Part shown: one piece after another, positions 1,088 to 35,545 of the stretch
Layout of the letters: the number at the start of each line of letters is the position of its first letter
Numbering within the stretch: position 1 is the first letter of the stretch
Assembly (NCBI GenBank): GCA_001779925.1
Contig: MFEK01000016.1
Coordinates: forward strand, 464-43,339
DNA from: Candidatus Doudnabacteria bacterium RIFCSPHIGHO2_01_FULL_46_14
GTDB lineage: Bacteria > Patescibacteriota > Doudnabacteria > UBA920 > 2-01-FULL-46-14
Direction of reading: 5' to 3'
DNA: 42,876 bases
Translations under genes and position numbers: made by a program
Notes under the pieces: model-generated
What the model was told of the DNA's origin: nothing
The model's input: only the letters and a program-made list of their open reading frames with translations
Databases searched by the model: none

Positions 1088-1465
1088 ATGAACTCCATAC
1101 TGCTCGCGGACGACGATCCCCTGATTGTCGGGTTATATAAAAAGAAGTTTGCCAAGCTCGGCTACGAGGTCGATGTTGCGATTGATGGCGAGGAAGCGCT
1201 GGAAAAGGCCGCGCAAATGAAACCTGGTCTCATCCTTCTCGATCGCATGCTGCCCAAGCTGGACGGCTTGGAAGTTTTAAAGAGACTTCACGCCAATCCC
1301 GAAACCAAAAACATCCCGGTTGTCATCTTGACCAACATGGAAGAGGATCAATCCGTCATCGGGCAGGCCAAGGCTCTCGGCGCGCTTGATTACCTTATCA
1401 AGGAGCGGATTGATCTAAACATGCTGGCCGAAAAGGTCAAAGAAATCTTCGCAAAGCAAAACTAA
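1088..1465 (+). CDS. single-domain response regulator (CheY-like receiver)
   Basis: ILLADDD, ILLDRMLPKLDG phospho-Asp motif, VVILTN, DYLIK. Confidence 0.95.
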   Translation: MNSILLADDDPLIVGLYKKKFAKLGYEVDVAIDGEEALEKAAQMKPGLILLDRMLPKLDGLEVLKRLHANPETKNIPVVILTNMEEDQSVIGQAKALGALDYLIKERIDLNMLAEKVKEIFAKQN

Positions 1466-3152
1466 ACACTGAACCTTTGGCAGGTGTGGATTTTACCCAT
1501 ATCCGGCCATTCATTTTTTCGACAATCTCCTTAACAATAAACAGTCCCAGTCCTGTTCCGGAAATATTTGCTGTCTCTGCGGTCTGGACACGGTAAAATT
1601 TTTCAAACAATTTTTTTTGCGCCTCAGGAGAAATACCCAAGCCCGTATCTTTAATGTGGGTAATAACCTCCTCGCTTAGAATTTCGTGGCTGATCATAAC
1701 CGTACCCGGGCCGGGCGTGTATTTAATGGCATTTCCAATGAGGTTGATGAGCACCTCGCGCAAACGCGCGCTGTCAGCCGAAACATCAGCAAGGGCTTTG
1801 TCGTCATTATAAACCAGCTCGATTTTTTTCTGTTTTGCCAAGGGCAGCAGCTCTTTCAGGGCTTCGCGAATCTGCTCATCAATCTTAACCTTACCAACCT
1901 GGATAGAAAGCCGCCCGGCTTCACTGCGCGCCACTGCCAGCAAATCTTCAACAAGCTGAACCAGTCTCGCGTTGGCCACATTGACCTGGCCGATCATTTC
2001 TTTGACCTCCGCGCTCACCGGGCCCGCGTCCCCGTCCATGACCATAGAAAGATAACCTTTGATAGCCGTAACCGGAGTACGCAATTCGTGGGCAGCTACA
2101 AATACAAACTCTTCCTTCAGTTCTTCCAGGCGCTTTAGCCCGGCAGTCATTTTGTTAAAGGCCGTGCCGAGCTCTTCGATTTCATCACCGGTTTTGATTT
2201 TTATCTCCTGGTCAAATTTACCTTCCGCGACGCGCAATGTCCCCTGCTCAAGGATCTTAATCGGCCGCACCACTCGGTTCGCCAAAAAAATGCTCAACAG
2301 CATGGTAAACAACAGCACCCCCAAAGACACTAAAATGATTTGATTGCGGACAACATTCACAATGCGATCCGCGTCAGCGGCCGGCCATTCCGCCACCAGG
2401 GTTAAACGGAGCCGCGGAAAATCCAATCGGGAAGCGACTACCGGTTCCTGCCAAAAACTCTGATAACGATTAACCCCTTGTAAATCCGGGGCAATAACAG
2501 CTTTTTGCGAAAATTTTTCCGGCTGGCTATGAGCGACCAAAAAACCATTCTCGTCCGCAAGATACACATATCCGCTGTTCCCCAAGCGGCTGCGCCTGAT
2601 GATTTGACCAATCTCGGAAAGATTGACCTCAGCAGTCAGCACGGAAATGATCTCATTGTTGCGGTTGCGCACCGGCGAGGCCAGGGAAACCATGGGTCCG
2701 ACCATAGTAAACCGAACCTCGCTGAGATAATCGCGTCCTTCGGCCGGAACGCGAAATTTTTCTGTCAGGCTTTGATCCAAAAGCTCGTCCGCCGGCAACA
2801 CGTCCTCAGCGTCTCGTTTGAGGAGCGCGGTTTCCCGACCAGAGAGAGCAATAAAAGAAATCTCTTCGATATTAGGGATCTCCTGGAGGATTTCCCGCAA
2901 TAAAAAATGCTGCTGCGACAGCTCGATATCGCTTTTCTGCTCATAGGCGACCTGCAGCAGGAGTGTGCCGGCAATACGATCCAATAACCCCTGGATCTCT
3001 TCTTCCTTTTGGCTCAGGAGGTTATTTTCAATGCTGGCAACATCAGCCTCGTGGAAAAAATTGATGCTGTAAAACGCCGCCAGTCCCAAAATCGCCAAGG
3101 GAATAACGCTGACCATGGCCATCGCCGTAAAAATTTTATTGCGCAGCAGCAT
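1437..3152 (-). CDS. sensor histidine kinase (2 TM, Cache-like sensor, HAMP, HisKA, HATPase)
   Basis: H-box AAHELRTPVT, N-box NLIGNAIKYT, DTGLGI, GTGLGL; HAMP (GDEIEELGTAFNKM). Confidence 0.95.
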   Translation of the reverse strand: MLLRNKIFTAMAMVSVIPLAILGLAAFYSINFFHEADVASIENNLLSQKEEEIQGLLDRIAGTLLLQVAYEQKSDIELSQQHFLLREILQEIPNIEEISFIALSGRETALLKRDAEDVLPADELLDQSLTEKFRVPAEGRDYLSEVRFTMVGPMVSLASPVRNRNNEIISVLTAEVNLSEIGQIIRRSRLGNSGYVYLADENGFLVAHSQPEKFSQKAVIAPDLQGVNRYQSFWQEPVVASRLDFPRLRLTLVAEWPAADADRIVNVVRNQIILVSLGVLLFTMLLSIFLANRVVRPIKILEQGTLRVAEGKFDQEIKIKTGDEIEELGTAFNKMTAGLKRLEELKEEFVFVAAHELRTPVTAIKGYLSMVMDGDAGPVSAEVKEMIGQVNVANARLVQLVEDLLAVARSEAGRLSIQVGKVKIDEQIREALKELLPLAKQKKIELVYNDDKALADVSADSARLREVLINLIGNAIKYTPGPGTVMISHEILSEEVITHIKDTGLGISPEAQKKLFEKFYRVQTAETANISGTGLGLFIVKEIVEKMNGRIWVKSTPAKGSVFSFALRRFL

Positions 3153-27305: not shown

Positions 27306-29225
27306 TTATATCAGCTCCCCGGCCTCGCCGAGGCGAGTCGAGGCGGGCGGGGTAGAGGGCGCGATTACGGCGGGCTGTTTCTGGATTTTTTTGGCAGGCG
27401 GGTTCACGTCAGCCATAATTTTGACAAACTCTTCCTGTTCGATGGTTTCTTGTTTAGTGAGTATTTTGGCGATCTGATCAAGTTTGGCCCGGTATTTTTT
27501 GCAAAGCTGGGACGCGGTTTTGAGTGCGCCATCCAAAAAATTGGCAATTTCTTCATCAATTTTCTGGGCGACCTTTTCCGAATAATTGCGCTGTTCACCG
27601 ATTTCTTTGCCCAAAAAAATCATCTCGTGATGATCGCCGTAAGTAACGGGCCCGAGTTTGTCGCTCATGCCATACATCATGACAAGCTTGCGGGCAAGGT
27701 TGGAGGCAACCTGGAGGTCGTTGGATGCGCCCGTAGTAATGTCTGCAAATACCTGCTGTTCCGCCACATAGCCGCCAAGCGCCACTGCCAGGTCAGCGAG
27801 AAATTCGCTTCGCGAATGCAGGTGTTTATCCTCAACCGGCAGTTTCAAAGTATAGCCCGCCGCTCTGCCGCGCGAGACTATGGAAATCTTGTGGACAGGG
27901 TCCGCGTGCGGGAGCATGGCGGCCACCAGCGCGTGGCCGCCTTCGTGGTAAGCCGCGATTTGTTTTTCGCGCGGGGACAACACGCGGCTTTTGCGCTCCG
28001 GCCCCAGCATGACTTTTTCAATGGCTTCCAGAAATTCACCCAGGTCAACCTGCTGTTTATCCCGGCGAGCGGCAAGAATCGCCGCTTCATTCACAAGGTT
28101 AGCCAGGTCTGCGCCGGAAAAACCCGGAGTGCGTTCGGCAATGAGATTGACATTCAGGGTTTTTAACACGGGTTTGCCGCGCAGATGCACTTTGAGGATT
28201 GCCTCGCGGTCTTTTATATCCGGCTGGTCAATGATAACCTGTCGGTCAAAGCGGCCTGGACGCAAAAGTGCAGGATCCAAGACATCCGGCCGGTTAGTCG
28301 CCGCAATGACTATAACGTTCGTGTCCGTATCAAAGCCGTCCATTTCCACGAGAATCTGGTTCAGTGTCTGCTCGCGCTCATCATGCGAACCGCCCAGTCC
28401 TGCGCCGCGCTGGCGGCCGACCGCGTCGATTTCATCGATAAACACAATACACGGGGCATGCTTTTTAGCTCGGCGAAACAGATCGCGCGTCCTGGCTGCG
28501 CCCACGCCCACGAACATTTCCACAAACTCTGAGCCGGACATATGGAAAAACGGCACATTAGCCTCGCCGGCTACCGCGCGCGCAAGCAAAGTCTTACCGC
28601 AGCCGGGCGGCCCCAGGAGCAGCGCGCCTTTGGGAATGCGCGCACCAATATTCAGAAACTTTTGCGGGTAGCGCAAAAACTCCACTATTTCTTTGAGTTC
28701 TTCTTTTGCCTCGGCAACTCCGGCCACATCCGCAAACGTAACTTTTTTCTGCGTCGCGCTGTCCGTGAGGCGTGCCTGCGATTGCCCAAACGACATAGCC
28801 CTGTTGTTCTGGCCCCCGACTTGCCGCATCAAAAAATAAATAAATCCGGCAATGAGCAGAAATGGTATAAGGAACGGCAAGATGCCTTGGACAAAAAACG
28901 AGGTGGCAGACGGACCTTTGACCTGGATACGCGCATCCTTGATGGCATCCGCGTCAGCATTGAAGCGAACCAATGCTTCACTTAGGTCAGACTGCGACTC
29001 TTTGATGGTCCTCACTTTGGAGCCGTCTTTGAGAAATACTAAAACCTCGTTATTGTCAGTGGAAACCTCGATATGATCAACGCGCCGCTCCTTCACATCG
29101 CCAGCAATGTCAGAGAGTGTAACCTCTTTGACATCCCGATCCTCGCTAACCGTCAGGCTGAAAACCCCCGCGATAATGAGGAAGACGAACAAGACAATGC
29201 CTAAATTTTTTAGAAACTTCTTCAT
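27306..29225 (-). CDS. ftsH: ATP-dependent zinc metalloprotease FtsH
   Basis: 2 [44 protein letters not shown]. Confidence 0.98.
27319..27348. repeat. 30-nt GC-rich imperfect palindrome in the ftsH C-terminal tail ([10 protein letters not shown])
   Basis: CCGGCCTCGCCGAGGCGAGTCGAGGCGGGC. Confidence 0.5.
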
Positions 29226-29287
29226 AAGTTAAAATTGTACCATCTTAACAATCATGAATCAAATGTGCGCTACGCACAATTGAAAGG

Positions 29288-29374
29288 TGGTGCCGCCGGT
29301 CGGAGTTGAACCGACATACCCTTGCGGGCGTCAGCTCCTAAAGCTGATGTGTCTGCCAATTTCACCACGGCGGC
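29288..29374 (-). tRNA. tRNA-Leu(TAG)
   Basis: GCCGCCG acceptor, TCAGC-TTTAGGA-GCTGA anticodon arm, variable arm GCCCGCAAGGGT, GGTTCAACTCC, CCA. Confidence 0.96.
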
Positions 29375-29609
29375 GTATTGTTCTTAAAAATTCCTTTCCA
29401 ATTCCAGACTTTAAGTATTTTTCATGATTTCTAGCGGTCTTTCTATCAGGAAACTCTTCGGTGTATATTAATTCAAAGGGCAGATACGATCTAGTGGTCG
29501 TTTCTTTTCCTGCATTGTGCTGAGCGACTCTCCTAGTAACATTATAAGCCAAGCCCACATAAATGTAGTTCTTCACTAAACTACTAATTGCGTAAACACT
29601 GCATTTCAT
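29331..29609 (-). CDS. small GIY-YIG endonuclease whose 3' end overlaps tRNA-Leu
   Basis: VYAI..IYVG, RRVAQHN.G...T, EKYLKSG.G; ATG at 29609. Confidence 0.9.
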   Translation of the reverse strand: MKCSVYAISSLVKNYIYVGLAYNVTRRVAQHNAGKETTTRSYLPFELIYTEEFPDRKTARNHEKYLKSGIGKEFLRTIRRRGEIGRHISFRS

Positions 29610-29625
29610 AACGATTTTTATTTTT

Positions 29626-29681
29626 GGTCCTAAACCTGTGCGCCTGCCGGCAGGCAGGTATGCCAATTCCGCCACTCGCCC
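29626..29681 (-). pseudogene. interrupted 5' half of a second tRNA-Leu(TAG)
   Basis: GGGCGAG TG GCGGAATTGGCATAC [CTGCCTGCCGGCAG] GCGCACAGG TTTAGGA CC, then the sequence breaks off. Confidence 0.75.
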
Positions 29682-29807
29682 CCCAACTATGCGGGGTAAA
29701 TCTGCTTGCCCGACTGAAATTTGCAAAGCAAATTTGGGCGGGCCTTTCGCCACTTTACCCGCCTAACTGCATGAGCAGTTGGGACGTGCCCGGCCAAAAG
29801 CCCTAAG

Positions 29808-29858
29808 ATTATAGCGAAACTAGGCAGTCTTGACAATTCCGCCCAAAAGTGCTAGGAT
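29808..29858. promoter_or_regulatory. back-to-back promoters with overlapping -35 boxes
   Basis: plus: TTGACA(29830)-17-TAGGAT with TG extension; minus: TTGTCA(29836)-17-TATAAT(29813-29808). Confidence 0.7.
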
Positions 29859-30112
29859 TGGTGGTCAATAATGATCCCAAATTTGATACACTAAAAAACC
29901 AGCTTTTCTCGCAGGAAAGAATCAGCAAATGTGCCGGTTCTCTCCGGCTAGAGAAGAGAAAAAAATCCCTAGCCTGAACTTTAAAAACTGAAAATAATGG
30001 ATCAATTCTTTCTTCCCTAACCGATGCAGTTACAACCTGCGTCCGGCAAGCGATTTTCGTTTTCCGAGCGCAGGTTGTAACTAACTGCAAAAACGGAAAG
30101 AAAGGAAAAAGT

Positions 30113-30418
30113 ATGGAAAAATCGGAAGACACGGGCAGACCATACACCGGTTATGTTATCGGATCACGACCAACTCCAGGTGGCCCAATTTGGCGCCTGA
30201 GAATTGAGACTGGTCCAAAGCTGACCGGCGAGAGCGTGACAATTTTGCGAAGCAGCACGCCTCCTGACATTAAGGAGACGGCATTTGCGAAGTTCAATGT
30301 CACGACCATTGGTAAGCCCCCCAACGATCAAGACTTCGCGGTCAATGTTATTTTAACGACCCGCGACAGGCAAACAACAAATGGAACGGAACAAAAGGAA
30401 GAAAAGGAGACGAAATGA
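30113..30418 (+). CDS. small beta-rich hypothetical protein, possibly OB/cold-shock-like
   Basis: AAGGA SD; YTGYV...AVNV pattern; overlaps the next gene by ATGA. Confidence 0.7.
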   Translation: MEKSEDTGRPYTGYVIGSRPTPGGPIWRLRIETGPKLTGESVTILRSSTPPDIKETAFAKFNVTTIGKPPNDQDFAVNVILTTRDRQTTNGTEQKEEKETK

Positions 30419-32112
30419 GTATGGAAGAGATTCGGAATGACGAAATTATGCAGGATTCGGACGGGGTAGTTCTCGCCCAGATTACCGCCGCGATCAGCGA
30501 CATCAACACAAAAACCGTACCGAGCATGGTAGCCAACTACGCCGGCAAGGATAGCTGGTCACTGACTTTCACGAGACTCGCGGACGATTATCGAATCGTC
30601 TGGGAAGGATACCTGACAACGTTTGCCGAGATGCGCGCCGACCGCCGCGGACGAGTCATTGAAGCGCTAACCCGCGCCGAGGAACTCCGCACCCGTCTGC
30701 AGACTGGCATTAACAACGAAAACACCCGTCTGCTAACCATCCTGAAAGAATCGCTCGCATCTGCCTGCCTTACCCGCCGCAAAAAGCTGGAAACAGCGCA
30801 GTTGGCAGCCGAAAGCCCGGCGAGCGAACCAACGGAAAAGGTTGAGATACCAACGGATGAACCGAAAGCACCGGAACCTCAGCCTGCTCCTCCGGTGGTT
30901 GACCTCGACTCGTCGCAACAGCAGCTCGCGCGCATCAACGTGGAACTCGCCGGTGATGAGAAAGCACATGTCGACCTGCCGAAACGGACGCAGAAAGCCG
31001 ATAATTTCATGGCAGCGATGGTGCTTCTCGGGTTTGCAGGCATTGCCATCGCGGTCGAAGTTCTCTCGGGCGGGTATGATATGTGGCGGGTCATGAGCAA
31101 CCCACGAATGGCGTGGGGATTCACGGCAGCGTTTCAGATTTTGCCGGTGATTCTTGCGTTTTTCCTAGCCGGGCCATTCAAGCGCTCCCACACGCACAAC
31201 CTAGCCAAGACACGGTTCCGGTCGTTGTACTCGAAAGGTCATCCGCAGGGATACAGAGTCGGCGAATTTGAGGATACAGCCCTTCTCAAGATCTTAGGCT
31301 GGCCTTTCATTGGACTGACTCTATTCCCGGTTATCTACCGGCTGTATGTTGCCACAACCCAGGATTTCGGGACAGCCGGGTTTGTATCTGCACTGGCCGG
31401 GTTCTTCGTTACTCTTACGGCGTTCGGCGTCAAATACGCTATGTCCAAAAGATATACGGACGAGCAGTACGAGCGCCTGGCGGAAAGAAAAAAGGCAGCA
31501 AAGATTGCCGAAGACGAAGAAAAAAAAGTCAAAGCTCAAGTGAAAGCCGAAGCCGCAGCCAAAGCTAGACAAGAAGAGGAAGAAAGGAAGGAGGCCGAAG
31601 CCATGGCCGCCGCTCTCCCGAAACCCATTATTCGCACTCCCCAGGAGGAATTTGACCAGTCCTTCAACGCGGCCGTCGCTGCTTACAGGAACGGGGTCAG
31701 TGCAAAGCTACAAATTGCGGGTGCGAATATCGAAAGCCGAGAAACAGCGCGGCTCGAGATTGTAGCGCTTGCCAAGCAACGCAATGAGGTTCGGGGAGAA
31801 CTCAGGGAAGGCTTCTACCATTCCTGCATCGCAGTCATGGATGGCGTCCAGGATACGCATCACGTAAAGCGAGCTCATATCCAATTCGGTAACGGCAAGG
31901 CCAGCGAGTATGACTATCTAATGTCATTCTTCGACGCCGCCGTGAAACTGCCGGATGACGAGAAGGAGATGGCTCAAATCCGTGATGGCGAGATCGAAAT
32001 CTCGCTGGATGATCCAACCGCGGGAGTTACAGTGATTGAGGACCTCATGGACGAGGCCATCGCAGCCACTGCCCGCAAAACCATCGTTCGTCCCGCAAAC
32101 GCGGTCAACTAG
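30415..32112 (+). CDS. membrane protein: coiled coil, four TM helices, coiled coil
   Basis: AGGAG SD; four hydrophobic segments; E/K/A-rich helix. Confidence 0.85.
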   Translation: MSMEEIRNDEIMQDSDGVVLAQITAAISDINTKTVPSMVANYAGKDSWSLTFTRLADDYRIVWEGYLTTFAEMRADRRGRVIEALTRAEELRTRLQTGINNENTRLLTILKESLASACLTRRKKLETAQLAAESPASEPTEKVEIPTDEPKAPEPQPAPPVVDLDSSQQQLARINVELAGDEKAHVDLPKRTQKADNFMAAMVLLGFAGIAIAVEVLSGGYDMWRVMSNPRMAWGFTAAFQILPVILAFFLAGPFKRSHTHNLAKTRFRSLYSKGHPQGYRVGEFEDTALLKILGWPFIGLTLFPVIYRLYVATTQDFGTAGFVSALAGFFVTLTAFGVKYAMSKRYTDEQYERLAERKKAAKIAEDEEKKVKAQVKAEAAAKARQEEEERKEAEAMAAALPKPIIRTPQEEFDQSFNAAVAAYRNGVSAKLQIAGANIESRETARLEIVALAKQRNEVRGELREGFYHSCIAVMDGVQDTHHVKRAHIQFGNGKASEYDYLMSFFDAAVKLPDDEKEMAQIRDGEIEISLDDPTAGVTVIEDLMDEAIAATARKTIVRPANAVN

Positions 32113-32121
32113 GAGGCGAGT

Positions 32122-33411
32122 ATGAAAAAAATCAAGATTCCGACGCCTGTGGTTGTCCGCAAGGGCGAGCCACAGGGGACCAAAAAGATAGCACCACCCC
32201 CATCGTCAAACGGGACCAGTGCCCAAGCTGCGGTCACGGCCAACCCAGTAAAAACTATCCCACCCGACCCGCAGCCCCAGTCTCGAGTTATCGAGGTCGA
32301 GGAAACGCGAACCGTGGACAGAATCAAGATTCGCGAAACATCGACTCCTCCTCCCGCTCCAGAGTTCTCAGAGGTACCAACTGGCGGCGGGATTTGGAAG
32401 TACGTAGCGGGCGTAATATTCGCCGTGATCGTGGTGGCTATACTGGCCGCCGTGTTTCACAACATCTCCACTGAGAACAGGAGCTTCCGTTCCGAGCTGA
32501 AACAACTGATGTTCACACGCGACATTCTGACCGGCAAAAGCGATCCAATTCCGGATCTTTTTACACCGGAACAGATCGCCCGATACAACCCAGGTCAAGG
32601 TGACGGCTTTGATGCAAAGTTCGTTATCAATAACGATCCTCGAAAAAACTTCGGGACTACAGAGGAGATTTTCACTCTGCCGATATGGGACCGCAAGAAC
32701 GAGGAAGAACGCCGTACCCAGGTCGCCACAGCCCATGGCAATTTTCTAAAATGGGTAAGCGAGAAATACCTAATCGCTCTGTCGTTCAAAGAGTCTGTAG
32801 AAATCGGGCTCGATGATACTGAAGGCGTTTCAGAATCGCTGGCGGAATTTGTCCGGCGCAATCTGGAACTTGAGGAGGTCAAAGAAAAACTCATCGAGTC
32901 GAAGAACGACACGCGGCTTGCCTTCTTCCGGATTTCCGATTCCAACGCTCTGACATTCCGGCGGTTCGAAATCAAAGCCGGCGATGAAGACACTGTGAAC
33001 CAAGTCTGGGAGGACGGCCTGACCTGGCTACTCGAGTCAGAGGAGGCACGCTCAAGGAAGGACGAAAGTTCGATCGCGACCGGGCTGTTCAATTTCCTGA
33101 AGAGAAATAATGAGATCCGGAAACGGAAGATCATTATATTCTCGGATGGTATGGAAAACAGTCGGCTGGAAACGACGACTTTCTATCCAGTAACCCAGAC
33201 GGCACGGATCGTCACGGAAACGAACTGGCCAAAGCTGGATGAACAGATCCAGAAGGTCCAAGAGTTTCCTGACCTGACACGCGCGCAGGTCAAATGGTTC
33301 ATGCCGCCGCTACGGGCCGTGTTTTATAACAACGTTAAGGCTTACTGGCAGCACGTGCTAGAGCAAGCCTGCGACTGCGACGGCGCGCCGCAAGTGGAGG
33401 TCATCCGCTAG
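32122..33411 (+). CDS. single-TM protein with Pro-rich N-terminus and vWA-like C-terminal domain
   Basis: AGGAGG SD; TM; IGLDDTEGV (degenerate DxSxS) and KIIIFSDGMEN. Confidence 0.75.
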   Translation: MKKIKIPTPVVVRKGEPQGTKKIAPPPSSNGTSAQAAVTANPVKTIPPDPQPQSRVIEVEETRTVDRIKIRETSTPPPAPEFSEVPTGGGIWKYVAGVIFAVIVVAILAAVFHNISTENRSFRSELKQLMFTRDILTGKSDPIPDLFTPEQIARYNPGQGDGFDAKFVINNDPRKNFGTTEEIFTLPIWDRKNEEERRTQVATAHGNFLKWVSEKYLIALSFKESVEIGLDDTEGVSESLAEFVRRNLELEEVKEKLIESKNDTRLAFFRISDSNALTFRRFEIKAGDEDTVNQVWEDGLTWLLESEEARSRKDESSIATGLFNFLKRNNEIRKRKIIIFSDGMENSRLETTTFYPVTQTARIVTETNWPKLDEQIQKVQEFPDLTRAQVKWFMPPLRAVFYNNVKAYWQHVLEQACDCDGAPQVEVIR

Positions 33412-33452
33412 ACAATCAAAAATCCCAAGGAGGGGATTGAAGTAATACTTGG

Positions 33453-33496
33453 AAAGGAGAGCAGAAACGACGATGTTTCTCTCTCCTTTTCTTTTT
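33453..33496 (+). terminator. intrinsic terminator
   Basis: AAAGGAGAG-AGAAAC/GTTTCT-CTCTCCTTT plus T tail. Confidence 0.75.
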
Positions 33497-33507
33497 GTCC
33501 GGAAAAC

Positions 33508-33536
33508 TTGATTTTCACCCAAAAATTTGCTATAAT
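33508..33536 (+). promoter_or_regulatory. sigma70-type promoter
   Basis: TTGATT-17-TATAAT with TG extension. Confidence 0.7.
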
Positions 33537-33571
33537 TACTGTAGATAAATTAAGCCTTAACGATACAAAAT

Positions 33572-34076
33572 ATGTTTAGAAAAAAAGAACAATCACTCGG
33601 CGATTATCTGAGAGCAGACAGTGGTCCGACCGCGGAAACAACTCCGGAAAGATCAGTGGACCAAATCGCCACAGAACGCATGCAAATGATCAAGGCAAAA
33701 GCGACCGGTTTTAAAAGATCGCATGCTAGATTACGGTAGCCGGTTCGCGAAATTCGTTCTAACCGGTGATGTGCGAGCAAAAAAAACCGCGCATCATGTC
33801 AGTGAAAAAACCAGAGAGCTTCACGCGGCTGGAGTAGACAGAATCGGACAAGTTACAGAAAATGCCAAAAATTGGGCTGACAAAAAGGTCCAAGGTGTAG
33901 AAAATAGAATCGGCTCTGGCATTAAAACCTATGAAATTGCCAGAGATTCTGTAAAACATGGCTTTACCGAAATGAAAAGCTTTGCCGGTAACCAGAGAGC
34001 TATGGAACAGAAGAGAGCGGAACTTATGAAACAACTCGCAGAACTAAACGCGCAAATGGGAGAAAGCAATGCCTAA
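33572..34076 (+). pseudogene. hypothetical helical protein apparently split by a +1 frameshift at TTTTAAAAG (33709-33717)
   Basis: ATG at 33572 opens a 55-aa ORF (stop 33739); deleting one A fuses it to 33723..34076. Confidence 0.6.
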
Positions 34077-34305
34077 CCAAAAAGATTTACAAAAACAACG
34101 AGATGAACTAAAACAACAGCTGGCAGCAGTTGATCAGCAGCTTGATGCTATGAAGAAATTGGAAGACACAATGGCCCAGGCTGAACAGCAATTCGATTCA
34201 GAAATGCAGGCCAAAGAAAAAGAGGTGGAGACAGTCTACAAAGAAGAGACAGACAAACTTAACGCCGCAATGCTGGATGACGCCCGGCAAGCCCTAAAAG
34301 ATTAA
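34069..34305 (+). CDS. small coiled-coil protein
   Basis: GGGAG SD; Q/K/E-rich heptads; overlaps the upstream ORF. Confidence 0.75.
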   Translation: MPNQKDLQKQRDELKQQLAAVDQQLDAMKKLEDTMAQAEQQFDSEMQAKEKEVETVYKEETDKLNAAMLDDARQALKD

Positions 34306-34354
34306 ATCCAGCCATTTTGGTAAAGTGCTGGATAAATTTTTCTGAAAAAGTCCC

Positions 34355-34387
34355 TCAAAAACCCCGCTAGGATAGCGGGGTTTTTGA
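34355..34387. terminator. bidirectional terminator-like hairpin
   Basis: 15-bp stem TCAAAAACCCCGCTA/TAGCGGGGTTTTTGA between convergent genes. Confidence 0.75.
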
Positions 34388-34702
34388 TTGGAGCGCGGCT
34401 TCGAGTTTGGGCAAATCATGTTTAATGACTTGCCATACGGCTCGATTATTTATTCTAAAATATTCATGAATGACTCTATTCCTCAATCCAACAACGTCAT
34501 GCCATGGTATGCTTGGATAACGCTTTAGAAAATCATCAGAAAGCTTGTTGGCTGCTTCTCCTATAATTTCCAAAGAACGAATGATAGCCAGCCGATGCAA
34601 TTTATCCGTCAAGAACTTTTCATAATCCAAATTCGCCGTAAAAGATTCAATATCATTGATTGATTCCAAAATATGACTTTTATATAAATTATCTTTTCCC
34701 AT
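34367..34702 (-). CDS. HEPN/DUF86 RNase toxin (HepT-like)
   Basis: LEIIGEA, IPW, RNRVIHEY (Rx4H), VW.VI..DLP.L. Confidence 0.92.
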   Translation of the reverse strand: MGKDNLYKSHILESINDIESFTANLDYEKFLTDKLHRLAIIRSLEIIGEAANKLSDDFLKRYPSIPWHDVVGLRNRVIHEYFRINNRAVWQVIKHDLPKLEAALQSKTPLS

Positions 34703-35174
34703 ATATTGGGACTAGGTCTTTTTCTACTTGCGGTTTTATCATAGGATGAAGTTCATCTTCTGTTGCTAAATCCGTCTTGGTGCCGAAAGCGTCTGTTAAC
34801 TCATTCTCCAAATGAATTATATCGAGCAAGCTCTTTTCGTTAGCGCTCTTTCCAAAACGCACTATTAAGTCCACGTCACTATCGGGCCCGGCTTCCCCTC
34901 GCGCATAAGAACCAAAAATCCCAGCGAACTCCACATCATTTTTTTTGAGAATGGGAATGGCGCGTTTTTTGATTTCCTCCAAAGTAAGAATAGATTTGCC
35001 AGTGGCCGGAAAAGGGGCGGTGCTGACCTCTTTTAATAGCTCTGGGTTGCTTTTGCGAACAAACCGCAGGACAGCGCGCAAAAACTCGCTACGGTTGGCA
35101 AACCCAAAGCTTTTGGTGGTTTTGTCAACGAATTGGGCTTGTTCTTCTGTTAAGCTTATATTGACTGTTTTCAT
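34689..35174 (-). CDS. ribbon-helix-helix plus minimal nucleotidyltransferase antitoxin (MntA-like fusion)
   Basis: MKTVNISL...GFANRSEFLRAVLR (RHH); FGSYARGEAGPDSDVDLIV (GS..DxD). Confidence 0.9.
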   Translation of the reverse strand: MKTVNISLTEEQAQFVDKTTKSFGFANRSEFLRAVLRFVRKSNPELLKEVSTAPFPATGKSILTLEEIKKRAIPILKKNDVEFAGIFGSYARGEAGPDSDVDLIVRFGKSANEKSLLDIIHLENELTDAFGTKTDLATEDELHPMIKPQVEKDLVPIYGKR

Positions 35175-35183
35175 GATATTTTA

Positions 35184-35213
35184 AGTATAGCAAACTTTGG
35201 CAAGGTTTGTCAA
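35184..35213 (-). promoter_or_regulatory. TA promoter with spacer inverted repeat (putative RHH operator)
   Basis: TTGACA-18-TATACT with TG extension; CAAACTTT-GGC-AAGGTTTG. Confidence 0.6.
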
Positions 35214-35239
35214 GATATAAATGCTGTCTCAACCCAGCA

Positions 35240-35268
35240 TTGACAAAACCCCCAAAATCTGCTAATAT
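35240..35268 (+). promoter_or_regulatory. sigma70-type promoter
   Basis: TTGACA-17-TAATAT with TG extension. Confidence 0.7.
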
Positions 35269-35334
35269 ATCAAGTCAATAAAGATAGCTCAGAGAACAGG
35301 ACCTTTGGGTAACGATTTATTCCCTCCTTTTATT

Positions 35335-35398
35335 CCTCCCCCTCGATGGGGCACGCTTCGTCCGAGCGAAGGCGAGGCGAGGAGGTTAGGTGGGGGTG
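35335..35398. repeat. family A unit with a nested hairpin, in the operon leader
   Basis: CCTCCCCCTCGATGGG[..CGCTTCG..CGAAGGCG..]GAGGAGGTTAGGTGGGGGTG. Confidence 0.75.
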
Positions 35399-35545
35399 AT
35401 AAAAAAGGGTTCTATTCTGTGAGCTAAAGGAAACTTTGGTTCTTGTCCTTTTACAGTTCAATAGTTCAAGTAAGTAAGTTCAAAAACAAACATTTCGTCG
35501 CTTCGTTGCGTCGCAATCTCGCGCGTGAAGCAGGAGGTCACCAAC

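Follow-up and report, generated by a model that had tools for sequence, protein, structure and literature searches.

A stand-alone GIY-YIG nuclease gene lodged at a tRNA-Leu gene of a Doudnabacteria bacterium: a probable copy of a selfish cassette that recurs across bacterial phyla

The stretch of DNA analyzed here (the window) comprises 42,876 nucleotides (nt) of contig MFEK01000016.1 of [quoted passage not shown] On its minus strand, it carries a small open reading frame (ORF) for a predicted GIY-YIG nuclease. The cassette to which this ORF belongs consists of a ∼78-amino-acid (aa) GIY-YIG gene that lies between a truncated tRNA duplicate, interrupted by a cognate GC-rich palindrome, and an intact tRNA gene. 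In the following, G000 denotes the genome of the window and G001 a genome of the same genus; the other G and L numbers denote the genomes and loci that were compared. The parts of the locus, in minus-strand order, are as follows.

29808..29836, minus strand: sigma-70-like promoter of the form TTGTCA-17-TATAAT, with 11 of 12 consensus positions matched; the same form is seen in the cassette-free relatives L022, L023, L040, and L048
29743..29763, minus strand: older tRNA-like 5' piece that resembles the region upstream of the G000 tRNA-Leu(caa) gene
29701..29747, minus strand: ∼45-nt repeat in the leader, made of two head-to-head inverted arms, with more copies in G000 and G001
29682..29707, minus strand: conserved leader motif ATTTACCCCGCATAGNTGG, found upstream of a second tRNA-Leu class in relatives
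29659..29681, minus strand: left arm of the tRNA-Leu 5' fragment, with GGGCGAG, D stem, and D loop (tRNA nt 1-23)
29643..29658, minus strand: palindrome at the end of the D loop, 16 nt of the 20-nt family palindrome CCTGCCTGCCGGCAGGCAGG
29626..29642, minus strand: right arm of the fragment, with the D-stem 3' strand, the anticodon-stem 5' strand, and the loop TTTAGGA plus 2 nt, after which it is truncated
29610..29625, minus strand: A-rich spacer ahead of the start codon
29331..29609, minus strand: GIY-YIG ORF of 92 aa, with the conserved core in residues 1-78 (29376-29609)
29288..29374, minus strand: intact tRNA-Leu(tag) gene with acceptor strands GCCGCCG/CGGCGGC, syntenic with ftsH across the order
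29264..29278, minus strand: terminator-like hairpin 3' of the tRNA
27306..29225, minus strand: ftsH, the conserved downstream neighbor, given for context only

These parts had been described in an earlier interpretation of the window that was made from the letters and translations alone (here, the sequence-only reading), and as a description it held up well. Both ARAGORN and Rfam (55.7 bits) called the tRNA-Leu(tag) gene at 29288-29374(-) intact, and by its coordinates it does supply the last 14 codons of the ORF (residues 79-92) and the TGA stop. The sequence CCTGCCGGCAGG was located at 29643-29654, which puts the palindromic 14-mer of that reading at 29642-29655, as claimed. The acceptor 5' strands of the fragment (GGGCGAG) and of the intact tRNA (GCCGCCG) were also as stated and differ at 5 of 7 positions. 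The end of the fragment is separated from the ATG of the ORF by 16 nt, and the ORF from the tRNA by 0 nt. The absence of an integrase was likewise confirmed: no integrase, recombinase, or transposase domain was found among the 10 ORFs of at least 110 aa scanned in the 23164-37075 region. Rfam left the 5' fragment unscored at E≤10 in a search of positions 29100-29900, but its origin from a tRNA was supported by alignment. After removal of the 16-nt palindrome, its comparison with the 5' halves of the five tRNA-Leu genes of G000 gave a local score of 24, reached by none of 2,000 shuffles (shuffle maximum, 14), with tRNA-Leu(cag) as the best partner (30 of 34 positions identical).

The arrangement is not an assembly artefact, since contigs from public sequencing runs match ftsH, the tRNA, the ORF, and the palindrome without a difference. 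A 1,026-nt contig from run X4, which is not flagged as a source of the assembly, is identical to the window over 28900-29671, and contigs from runs X6 and X1 span 29350-29671 and 29350-29675, respectively. Contigs from X4 and X5 also join position 29374 to 29683, skipping the fragment and the ORF, with a short side of only 23 nt. This joint was not counted as an empty allele: its 23-nt side is the conserved leader motif and may belong to another organism.

The fragment ends near the anticodon loop, and another copy of the nuclease gene in the same genome occupies a functional RNA (the P3 loop of RNase P RNA; see below), both of which would suit an intron-like or split gene, in which the 5' fragment and a distant 3' half are joined by splicing or trans-assembly and the ORF is mere cargo. 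Such a gene would need the T arm and the CTCGCCC acceptor strand, for which the window has 0 matches and the whole genome has 3 weak ones, against 2 in the reversed control, the best of them lacking a T stem. No intron RNA family was matched in Rfam at 29100-29900, the fragment and the ORF are a mere ∼16 nt apart and the ORF and the tRNA 0 nt, and the downstream tRNA is complete alone. We consider a split gene extremely improbable. The window copy is, as the sequence-only reading had it, neither a simple target duplication nor a spliceable intron, the latter because there is no 3' half that matches GGGCGAG.

GIY-YIG is the only convincing domain of the 92-aa product. Pfam family PF01541 matches residues 3-68 with E=3.2e-15 (56.6 bits versus a cutoff of 22.6), in agreement with the initial assignment, and no DNA-binding domain was found in the protein, with its conserved core of 78 aa and single Pfam domain. 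Residues Y6, Y17, G19, R27, H31, and E63 are invariant in 6 paralogues and in 53 homologues, and the latter share 18 invariant columns. The conserved set corresponds to the tyrosines of the GIY and YIG motifs, the Arg, the His, and the metal-binding Glu, with their roles known from I-TevI and UvrC. The AlphaFold2 model has a pLDDT of 91.3, with residues 1-80 above 94 and the tRNA-encoded tail poorly modeled (block means of 67 and 53).

By sequence, the nearest solved proteins are the UPF0213 members BH0048 (1ZG2; E=0.0031) and EF2693 (1YWL). Foldseek ranked, in this order, UPF0213 BH0048, the Slx1 nuclease domain (rmsd of 2.2 Å over ∼73 columns, 28-31% identity), HIGLE, and the I-TevI catalytic domain; the N-terminal domains of UvrC also matched, and ranks 1 to 8 were all 1ZG2 and Slx1 chains. 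No NCBIfam family scored above its cutoff, and TIGR01453 (group I intron endonuclease) reached 16.9 bits against a cutoff of 56, over profile positions 1-40 of 215 only. PADLOC yielded just a 13-bit match (E=0.0088), and PHROGs yielded none. The protein is a domain-only predicted GIY-YIG nuclease whose closest solved relatives belong to the UPF0213/Slx1 (URI) branch.

The arrangement seen in the window recurs far outside Doudnabacteria. At E≤1e-5, the window protein has 536 homologues. The best of these, with 60-76% identity, come from Bacteroidota isolates and metagenome-assembled genomes, Bipolaricaulota, and groups of the candidate phyla radiation, and homologues with 55-76% identity are found in Bacteroidota, Ignavibacteriota, Saccharibacteria, Doudnabacteria, and others. 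In the source databases, they are named only "GIY-YIG nuclease family protein" or "putative endonuclease." In a cross-phylum sample of 80 loci (one genome per species, with up to 3 mismatches allowed in the palindrome), 72 have a directly adjoining tRNA gene on the same strand, which lies downstream only in 44 loci, upstream only in 24, and on both sides in 4. The adjoining tRNA is nearly always tRNA-Leu, with all five anticodons represented, and tRNA-Arg in a few cases. The 20-nt palindrome is present upstream of the ORF, within a truncated 5' tRNA copy, in 40 of the 44 "downstream" loci. The 24 "upstream" loci are mirror images of these, and 15 of them have the palindrome downstream of the ORF, within a 5'-truncated copy of the 3' part of the tRNA that at times includes the terminator. 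A close tie of the nuclease family to tRNA genes, proposed from the window alone, is thus evident from this neighborhood survey, as well as from the G000 and order-level samples described below.

The palindrome is inserted cleanly: the tRNA sequence to its left ends with nt 14/15 or 22/23, and that to its right continues from the very next position. The flanks are usually copies of the intact tRNA (e.g., 14/14, 23/23, or 22/22 positions identical), the diverged exceptions being the copies in the window and in G053, where the left flank and the intact tRNA agree in 17 of 22 positions. The ORFs are mostly intact, with clear truncation noted in 4 of the 80 loci. Two Pedobacter species have the cassette at the same tRNA-Arg(cct) site. 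No homologues were found at E≤1e-6 in 50,697 phage records or in 72,556 plasmid records.

The same association is seen within G000 itself (1.075 Mb, 99% complete, 47 tRNA genes). Of its 11 GIY-YIG matches, 7 lie at same-strand stable-RNA genes, and because only ∼0.9% of positions (a fraction of ∼0.009) are that near to such a gene, the binomial probability of this is ∼2e-12. In the tRNA-Glu(ttc) copy, the ORF enters the tRNA by 23 nt and is preceded by an 11-nt copy of the tRNA 5' end and then two GC hairpins; this locus is rearranged in relatives. The tRNA-Ser(tga) copy enters its tRNA by 15 nt and is preceded by two hairpins and, farther upstream, by a 36-nt copy of the 5' half that reaches the anticodon loop, and the window copy enters tRNA-Leu(tag) by 44 nt. 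One ORF is flanked by two tRNA-Met genes, another lies 3' of tRNA-Glu(ctc), with a 13-nt copy of the 3' end of that tRNA on its far side, one lies 3' of the transfer-messenger RNA (tmRNA) gene, and one is within the RNase P RNA gene. The UPF0213-like paralogues of G000 form a separate clade (support 95*), in which only the copy after tmRNA adjoins a stable-RNA gene.

Two of these loci have further peculiarities. The ORF upstream of tRNA-Ser(tga) (L004:1461-1749; C7:52136-52423 of G000) lacks an in-frame start codon of the ATG, GTG, or TTG type ahead of the conserved N terminus; it is possibly a pseudogene, or its translation starts at an unusual codon. A degenerate tRNA-Met copy with two GC-rich palindromic inserts, which ARAGORN does not call, is found right after an intact tRNA-Met gene (L006; C6 of G000, ∼122450-122545, minus strand).

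An ordinary local rearrangement, i.e., a decayed tandem tRNA-Leu duplicate beside an unrelated small ORF, would account for the failure of Rfam to score the fragment as a tRNA and for its different acceptor strand. Yet the recurrence of the arrangement in 40 of the 44 cross-phylum "downstream" loci, where the 20-nt palindrome occupies the same tRNA positions, and its presence at other tRNA genes of G000 make such a coincidence very improbable.

For a survey of the order, a profile was built from six paralogues and run against 146 genomes. It matched in 128 of them, with 0 to 17 copies per ∼1-Mb genome. The best locus of each of 29 genomes and the next 60 rows by E-value gave a sample of 89 loci with 98 ORFs, of which 38 are abutted by a same-strand tRNA or tmRNA gene. 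A same-strand tRNA starts at -50 to +50 nt from the stop codon in 22 cases and ends 15 to 190 nt upstream of the start codon in 14, and tmRNA is found 220 to 350 nt upstream in 2. Every tRNA-linked locus inspected by eye has an upstream copy of tRNA positions 1 to ∼12-36, interrupted or trailed by GC-rich hairpins and followed by no more than ∼20 A/T-rich bases and then the ATG. Rfam searches of 19 GIY-YIG loci without a called tRNA matched tRNA 4 times, and other RNA families were absent at E≤0.001. Many of the tRNA-less copies belong to another class, with the ORF placed between short inverted repeats and its TGA overlapping the ATG of the next host gene. In L058, L060, L061, L062, L074, and L077 (∼1460-1770), the inverted repeat CCCGTTAGAGAC ... 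CTAACGGG brackets the ORF at the start of a protein-coding gene; in loci of the L058 type, the TGA of the ORF overlaps the host-gene ATG (ATGA), and a second ATGA is found just upstream of the repeat.

A tree of 110 ORFs, computed with a quick search on 81 columns, pairs the window protein with the tRNA-Leu(tag) copy of G053 (support 95*) and then with the tRNA-Leu(caa) copy of G105. These Leu copies nest within a 7-row clade (97*) whose remaining members are at tRNA-Asn genes. Other clades are tied to tRNA genes for Ser (4 of 4), Glu, Asn, Val, and Thr or to a site downstream of the tRNA. The target labels require 24 changes on the tree, compared with 40 to 48 in 500 shuffles, a test that is inflated by the relatedness of the genomes.

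Two individual loci are of interest here. At a tRNA-Asn gene of G006 (L083; C26, ∼1150-1700, minus strand), a first fragment with 46 nt of the ORF 5' end is followed by a second, palindrome-bearing fragment, then the full ORF and the tRNA; this nested order suggests repeated events at one site. In G012 (L093; C32, ∼1480-1626), a palindrome-interrupted 5' fragment and an intact tRNA-Val(tac) gene downstream of it are 17 nt apart, without an ORF in the gap, and the acceptor strand of the fragment differs from that of this tRNA.

The copy in the RNase P RNA gene was compared among relatives. In G000, the GIY-YIG ORF is in the loop of helix P3 (L005:1170-1770; C6:40066-40660, minus strand), with the 5' strand of P1 upstream of the ORF and pairing with the 3' end of the RNA. 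Among the six family-f1 genomes compared, P3 is filled by a GIY-YIG ORF in G000, G005, and G002 and is a short hairpin with no ORF in G001, G003, and G007, so that filled and empty alleles exist at one exact site. Longer stems (12, 16, and 13 bp) close the filled loops; they have unlike sequences, although each pairs over its full length. This pattern suggests a ribozyme that functions while the ORF is looped out. The Rfam score of the G000 RNase P RNA is 81 bits, under the gathering score of 100. If the suggestion is correct, there are bacteria whose active RNase P ribozyme has a protein-coding ORF within its P3 loop, which by itself would be of interest to ribozyme biologists. Downstream of the RNase P RNA of G000 (L005:1010-1170; C6) lies a ∼150-nt dispersed repeat that has at least 9 copies, with 74-81% identity, in G007.

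A comparison with empty sites, proposed in the sequence-only reading, was also possible at the tRNA-Leu(tag) gene, which adjoins ftsH across the order. At least 10 relatives have a plain promoter of the TTGTCA-17-TATAAT type directly upstream of the ftsH-linked tRNA-Leu(tag), and in none of these is there a GIY-YIG gene upstream of it. In G033, such a gene is found on the opposite side of tRNA-Leu(tag), and in G053, there is one on each side. The resident-type promoter is kept in the window at 29836-29808; therefore, the ∼430 nt between it and the tRNA are extra. The cassette block (∼29375-29800) would thus sit between a resident promoter and a resident tRNA.

The extra block carries the leader of the second tRNA-Leu class and the fragment, opening with the leader motif; the same leader occurs in G035, G008, G002, and others and at the tRNA-Leu(caa) gene of G000 itself. 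In all of these (window 29682-29763(-); L032-L036, L041, and L042), it consists of a tRNA-like 5' piece, a hairpin, the remainder of the D loop, and ATTTACCCCGCATAGNTGGT, with the tRNA immediately after it. This leader has the appearance of a remnant of a similar event, without an ORF. The ∼45-nt repeat in this leader has copies with 86-98% identity at C14:151833, C7:3586, and C16:46683 of G000 and also in G001, and its arms are similar to the inverted repeats on either side of the GIY-YIG ORF in L066.

We favor the view that the fragment came in with the cassette and that the intact tRNA with the GCCGCCG acceptor is the resident one, because the promoter is retained and because of the family-f1 relatives. 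Alternatively, a resident gene of the second class may have been overwritten, as G035 has that class at ftsH. The earlier proposal that the element arrived with a foreign tRNA fragment is accordingly plausible: other-class leader and fragment lie between a promoter and a tRNA of the resident type. Within the order, close homologues of the window protein were found only in G053 (74% identity), G105 (68%), and G109 (60%, a pseudogene), and there was none in G001. The nucleases of G000 and G053 are 73-74% identical, while their FtsH proteins are 66% identical. Position 1 of contig C5 of G001 falls inside the 5' end of the ftsH-linked tRNA-Leu(tag), and assembly breaks at tRNA sites may hide further cassettes.

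The palindrome is coupled specifically to the clade of nucleases that includes the window protein. It is found within 160 nt of 5 of the 99 order-level ORFs, all five in the 7-row Leu/Asn clade, and beside none of the 93 ORFs outside this clade. A different long hairpin motif precedes 11 ORFs, of which 10 constitute the Asn/Val/Thr clade and the eleventh, at a tRNA-His gene, is placed beside it. Genome-wide counts of the palindrome, compared with nuclease counts by inspection of the tables, do not follow the nuclease. With up to 2 mismatches, the palindrome is present in 95 of 146 genomes, with a maximum of 48+55 strand matches per genome and ∼0 in the reversed-pattern control. The palindrome-rich G073, G017, G030, G021, and G018 have no close nuclease homologue. 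Genomes with 9 to 12 GIY-YIG copies have 0 or 1 palindromes, and G084, G086, G069, and G038 (9 to 10 copies) have none. Of six other palindrome sites examined in G000, only two are true palindromes (C10:38375 and C2:288), and the rest are partial matches.

These data bear on the mechanism put forward in the sequence-only reading, namely, a tRNA-homing element whose stop codon within the tRNA is cut off by RNase P, acting as a built-in brake on the nuclease, and whose nuclease drives the spread of a repeat family. It agrees with this scheme that three of the four G000 cassettes located upstream of a tRNA (those at Leu, Glu, and Ser) enter it and that the palindrome is specific to the nuclease clade. 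However, the brake is not conserved and not supported: the ORF overlaps its tRNA in only a minority of cases, in 8 of the 22 order-level ORFs with a tRNA near the stop codon and in 7 of 48 cross-phylum loci, most homologues terminating 0 to 25 nt short of it at a stop codon of their own. In the closest homologue, that of G053, a separate TAA ends the ORF 6 nt ahead of the tRNA, and the low model confidence of the tRNA-encoded tail speaks for the same conclusion. The suggested link of the palindrome to the ends of another repeat family of the window (family B) was not sustained: GGCAGGCA was counted 4 times in the window, where 1.77 occurrences are expected, and at least as many were obtained in 8 of 100 shuffles. 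Of the proposed tie between palindrome and nuclease, the clade-specific coupling stands, but the nuclease as a general driver of palindrome spread does not, given the palindrome-rich genomes that lack it. As a whole, this scheme appears improbable.

We propose instead that the window contains one diverged copy of a selfish, horizontally spreading nuclease cassette and assign this interpretation a probability of roughly 60%. The observations that carry it are the cross-phylum recurrence, the clean insertion at fixed tRNA positions, the coupling of clade, hairpin, and target, and the patchy occupancy of orthologous sites; the cutting of DNA, its substrate, and the route by which the cassette is copied are inferred. 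Transcription of the cassette would start at the promoter of the tRNA gene itself (29836-29808 in the window), and RNase P, by cutting at the tRNA 5' end, would part the tRNA from the mRNA of the nuclease. Partial duplication of the target would allow the cassette to occupy an essential single-copy tRNA gene without killing the host, and the 14-codon run into the tRNA would be an incidental loss of the ORF's own stop. Spread could proceed via nuclease-initiated recombination between tRNA genes, and spread across phyla would follow from the D arm of tRNA-Leu being nearly invariant among bacteria. The palindrome may extrude as a cruciform and be the structure on which the nuclease acts, by analogy with Slx1, the nearest characterized structural relative, which cuts branched DNA. 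Two geometries can be envisaged: a homing-type repair, with the truncated copy as one homology arm, or a transposition-like insertion with a long target duplication.

Several points weigh against this interpretation. No movement event has been observed, and the phage and plasmid records searched at E≤1e-6 contain no homologue and hence no candidate vector for spread across phyla. Site-specific homing of the I-TevI kind is hard to picture for a protein without a DNA-binding domain, and a tRNA-directed nuclease would cut its own locus, because the intact copy keeps the target sequence. The palindrome is abundant in genomes without this nuclease clade, ∼60 of the 98 order-level ORFs have no tRNA within 800 to 1,500 nt, and the tree is weak, with its 81 columns and quick search and with related genomes sharing labels. 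Finally, the 18 invariant columns, the mostly intact ORFs, and the site shared by the Pedobacter species would also fit a host-useful gene.

A host-useful gene would in this case be a small domesticated structure-specific nuclease expressed along with tRNA genes. Its task could be, for instance, the processing of hairpin or cruciform DNA at tRNA loci, which are rich in repeats and heavily transcribed, and the duplicates and palindromes would be by-products of local recombination. The strong conservation across 53 sequences, the low share of clearly truncated ORFs among the 80 cross-phylum loci, the shared tRNA-Arg(cct) site, the lack of a phage or plasmid carrier in the records searched, and the housekeeping role of Slx1 as the nearest characterized structural relative are all in line with this explanation. 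It is difficult to reconcile with a copy number that varies from 0 to 17 per ∼1-Mb genome, copies with internal stop codons, a patchy distribution that leaves out the same-genus G001, and orthologous sites that are filled in some genomes and empty in others. The nested and degenerate copies (L083), a between-family identity of the nuclease that exceeds that of FtsH, and homologues in other phyla with 60-76% identity are further evidence to the contrary. We regard a host function as rather unlikely.

If the selfish-cassette interpretation is extended to all the target sites, a new class of mobile elements can be tentatively envisaged, in which a ∼80-aa Slx1-like nuclease and its cognate palindrome reside in loops of structured-RNA genes (the D, anticodon, and T loops of tRNA and helix P3 of RNase P RNA) and the nuclease would act on the hairpin or cruciform once this is extruded, not on a sequence recognized by a DNA-binding domain. 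In the course of repair, a part of the target would be duplicated, an intact gene would always be left, and the scattered ORF-less palindromes would be miniature derivatives. This broader proposal is possible but speculative.

Stand-alone GIY-YIG proteins of ∼80 aa are annotated in thousands of genomes with neither a function nor a genomic logic. What is new here is a large subfamily tied to tRNA-Leu genes across phyla, together with a palindrome-bearing truncated tRNA duplicate; the sister clades have their own hairpins and their own targets, which makes nuclease, DNA structure, and target a system that can be tested. If mobile, the cassette would be the smallest protein-coding selfish element known in essential RNA genes and a route for co-conversion of tRNA genes between distant bacteria. 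It also accounts for tRNA fragments that confuse annotation and for breaks of metagenome contigs at tRNA genes.

No description of this arrangement was found in published full-text literature, subscription journals being outside the search; the nearest systems are SegB and the "fractured genes" discussed below. Integrative elements that target tRNA genes use the tRNA as a landing site and keep the gene intact by means of a duplicated tRNA segment. In contrast to these, the window has no tyrosine or serine recombinase in the 10 ORFs scanned, the inserted block is only ∼430 nt, and the duplicated part is the 5' part of the tRNA rather than the 3' end, although the mirror-image relatives do have 3' duplicates. 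The small unit of ORF and palindrome recalls the integron cassette, which consists of one ORF and one palindromic attC site, and the palindrome itself recalls REP sequences, which are multi-copy palindromes. A multi-copy palindromic repeat is shared with REP/RAYT and IS200/IS605 systems, but there is no HUH (Y1) transposase here, and the associated ORF is GIY-YIG only.

Among single-domain proteins, the UPF0213/YhbQ family (1ZG2, BH0048; 1YWL, EF2693) has the same size and is the best match in both sequence and fold. The depositors of these structures state no function, and we know of no reported link of this family to tRNA genes or palindromes. Slx1 has an extra C-terminal zinc-finger domain and the partner Slx4. 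The C-terminal domain and Slx4 are both absent here, the window protein being 78-92 aa long; moreover, Slx1 is a housekeeping repair enzyme, whereas the window family is multi-copy and patchy. Nevertheless, the fold superposes on the nuclease domains of Slx1 and HIGLE (6SEH, 7CQ2, 4XM5, and 7WME) with the rmsd of 2.2 Å. Slx1 (with Slx4) and the plant protein HIGLE are described, in the available text of PMC4407285 and PMC8287910, as structure-specific GIY-YIG nucleases that cut branched DNA. By analogy, a preference for structure over sequence would fit the association of the window protein with a cognate hairpin.

In "fractured genes," according to the available part of PMC2677866, a free-standing homing endonuclease gene lies between the halves of a gene split by an intein. 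Similarly to these, the nuclease ORF of the cassette lies inside an essential gene whose product still functions; there, function is restored by protein trans-splicing, and here, part of the RNA gene is duplicated or the ORF is looped out of P3. The closest parallel is SegB, a GIY-YIG gene that is located in the tRNA gene cluster of phage T4, outside introns, and that reportedly spreads by nuclease-initiated recombination with flanking tRNA sequence, resulting in co-conversion of flanking markers (available text of PMC2330249). Similarly to SegB, the window cassette is a free-standing GIY-YIG gene at a tRNA that would spread together with flanking tRNA sequence. SegB-type proteins differ in having a C-terminal DNA-binding region, as opposed to the 78-aa catalytic domain alone; a partial target duplication and a cognate palindrome are not mentioned for SegB in the available text of PMC2330249, and the host here is cellular, with no phage homologues in the records searched. 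The combination of catalytic and DNA-binding domains that typifies I-TevI and the Seg proteins is absent from the window protein, whose 14 aa beyond the core are encoded by the tRNA. What the cassette does share with I-TevI and the Seg proteins is presence or absence at a defined target site, as seen at the ftsH-linked tRNA-Leu(tag) and in helix P3 of RNase P RNA.

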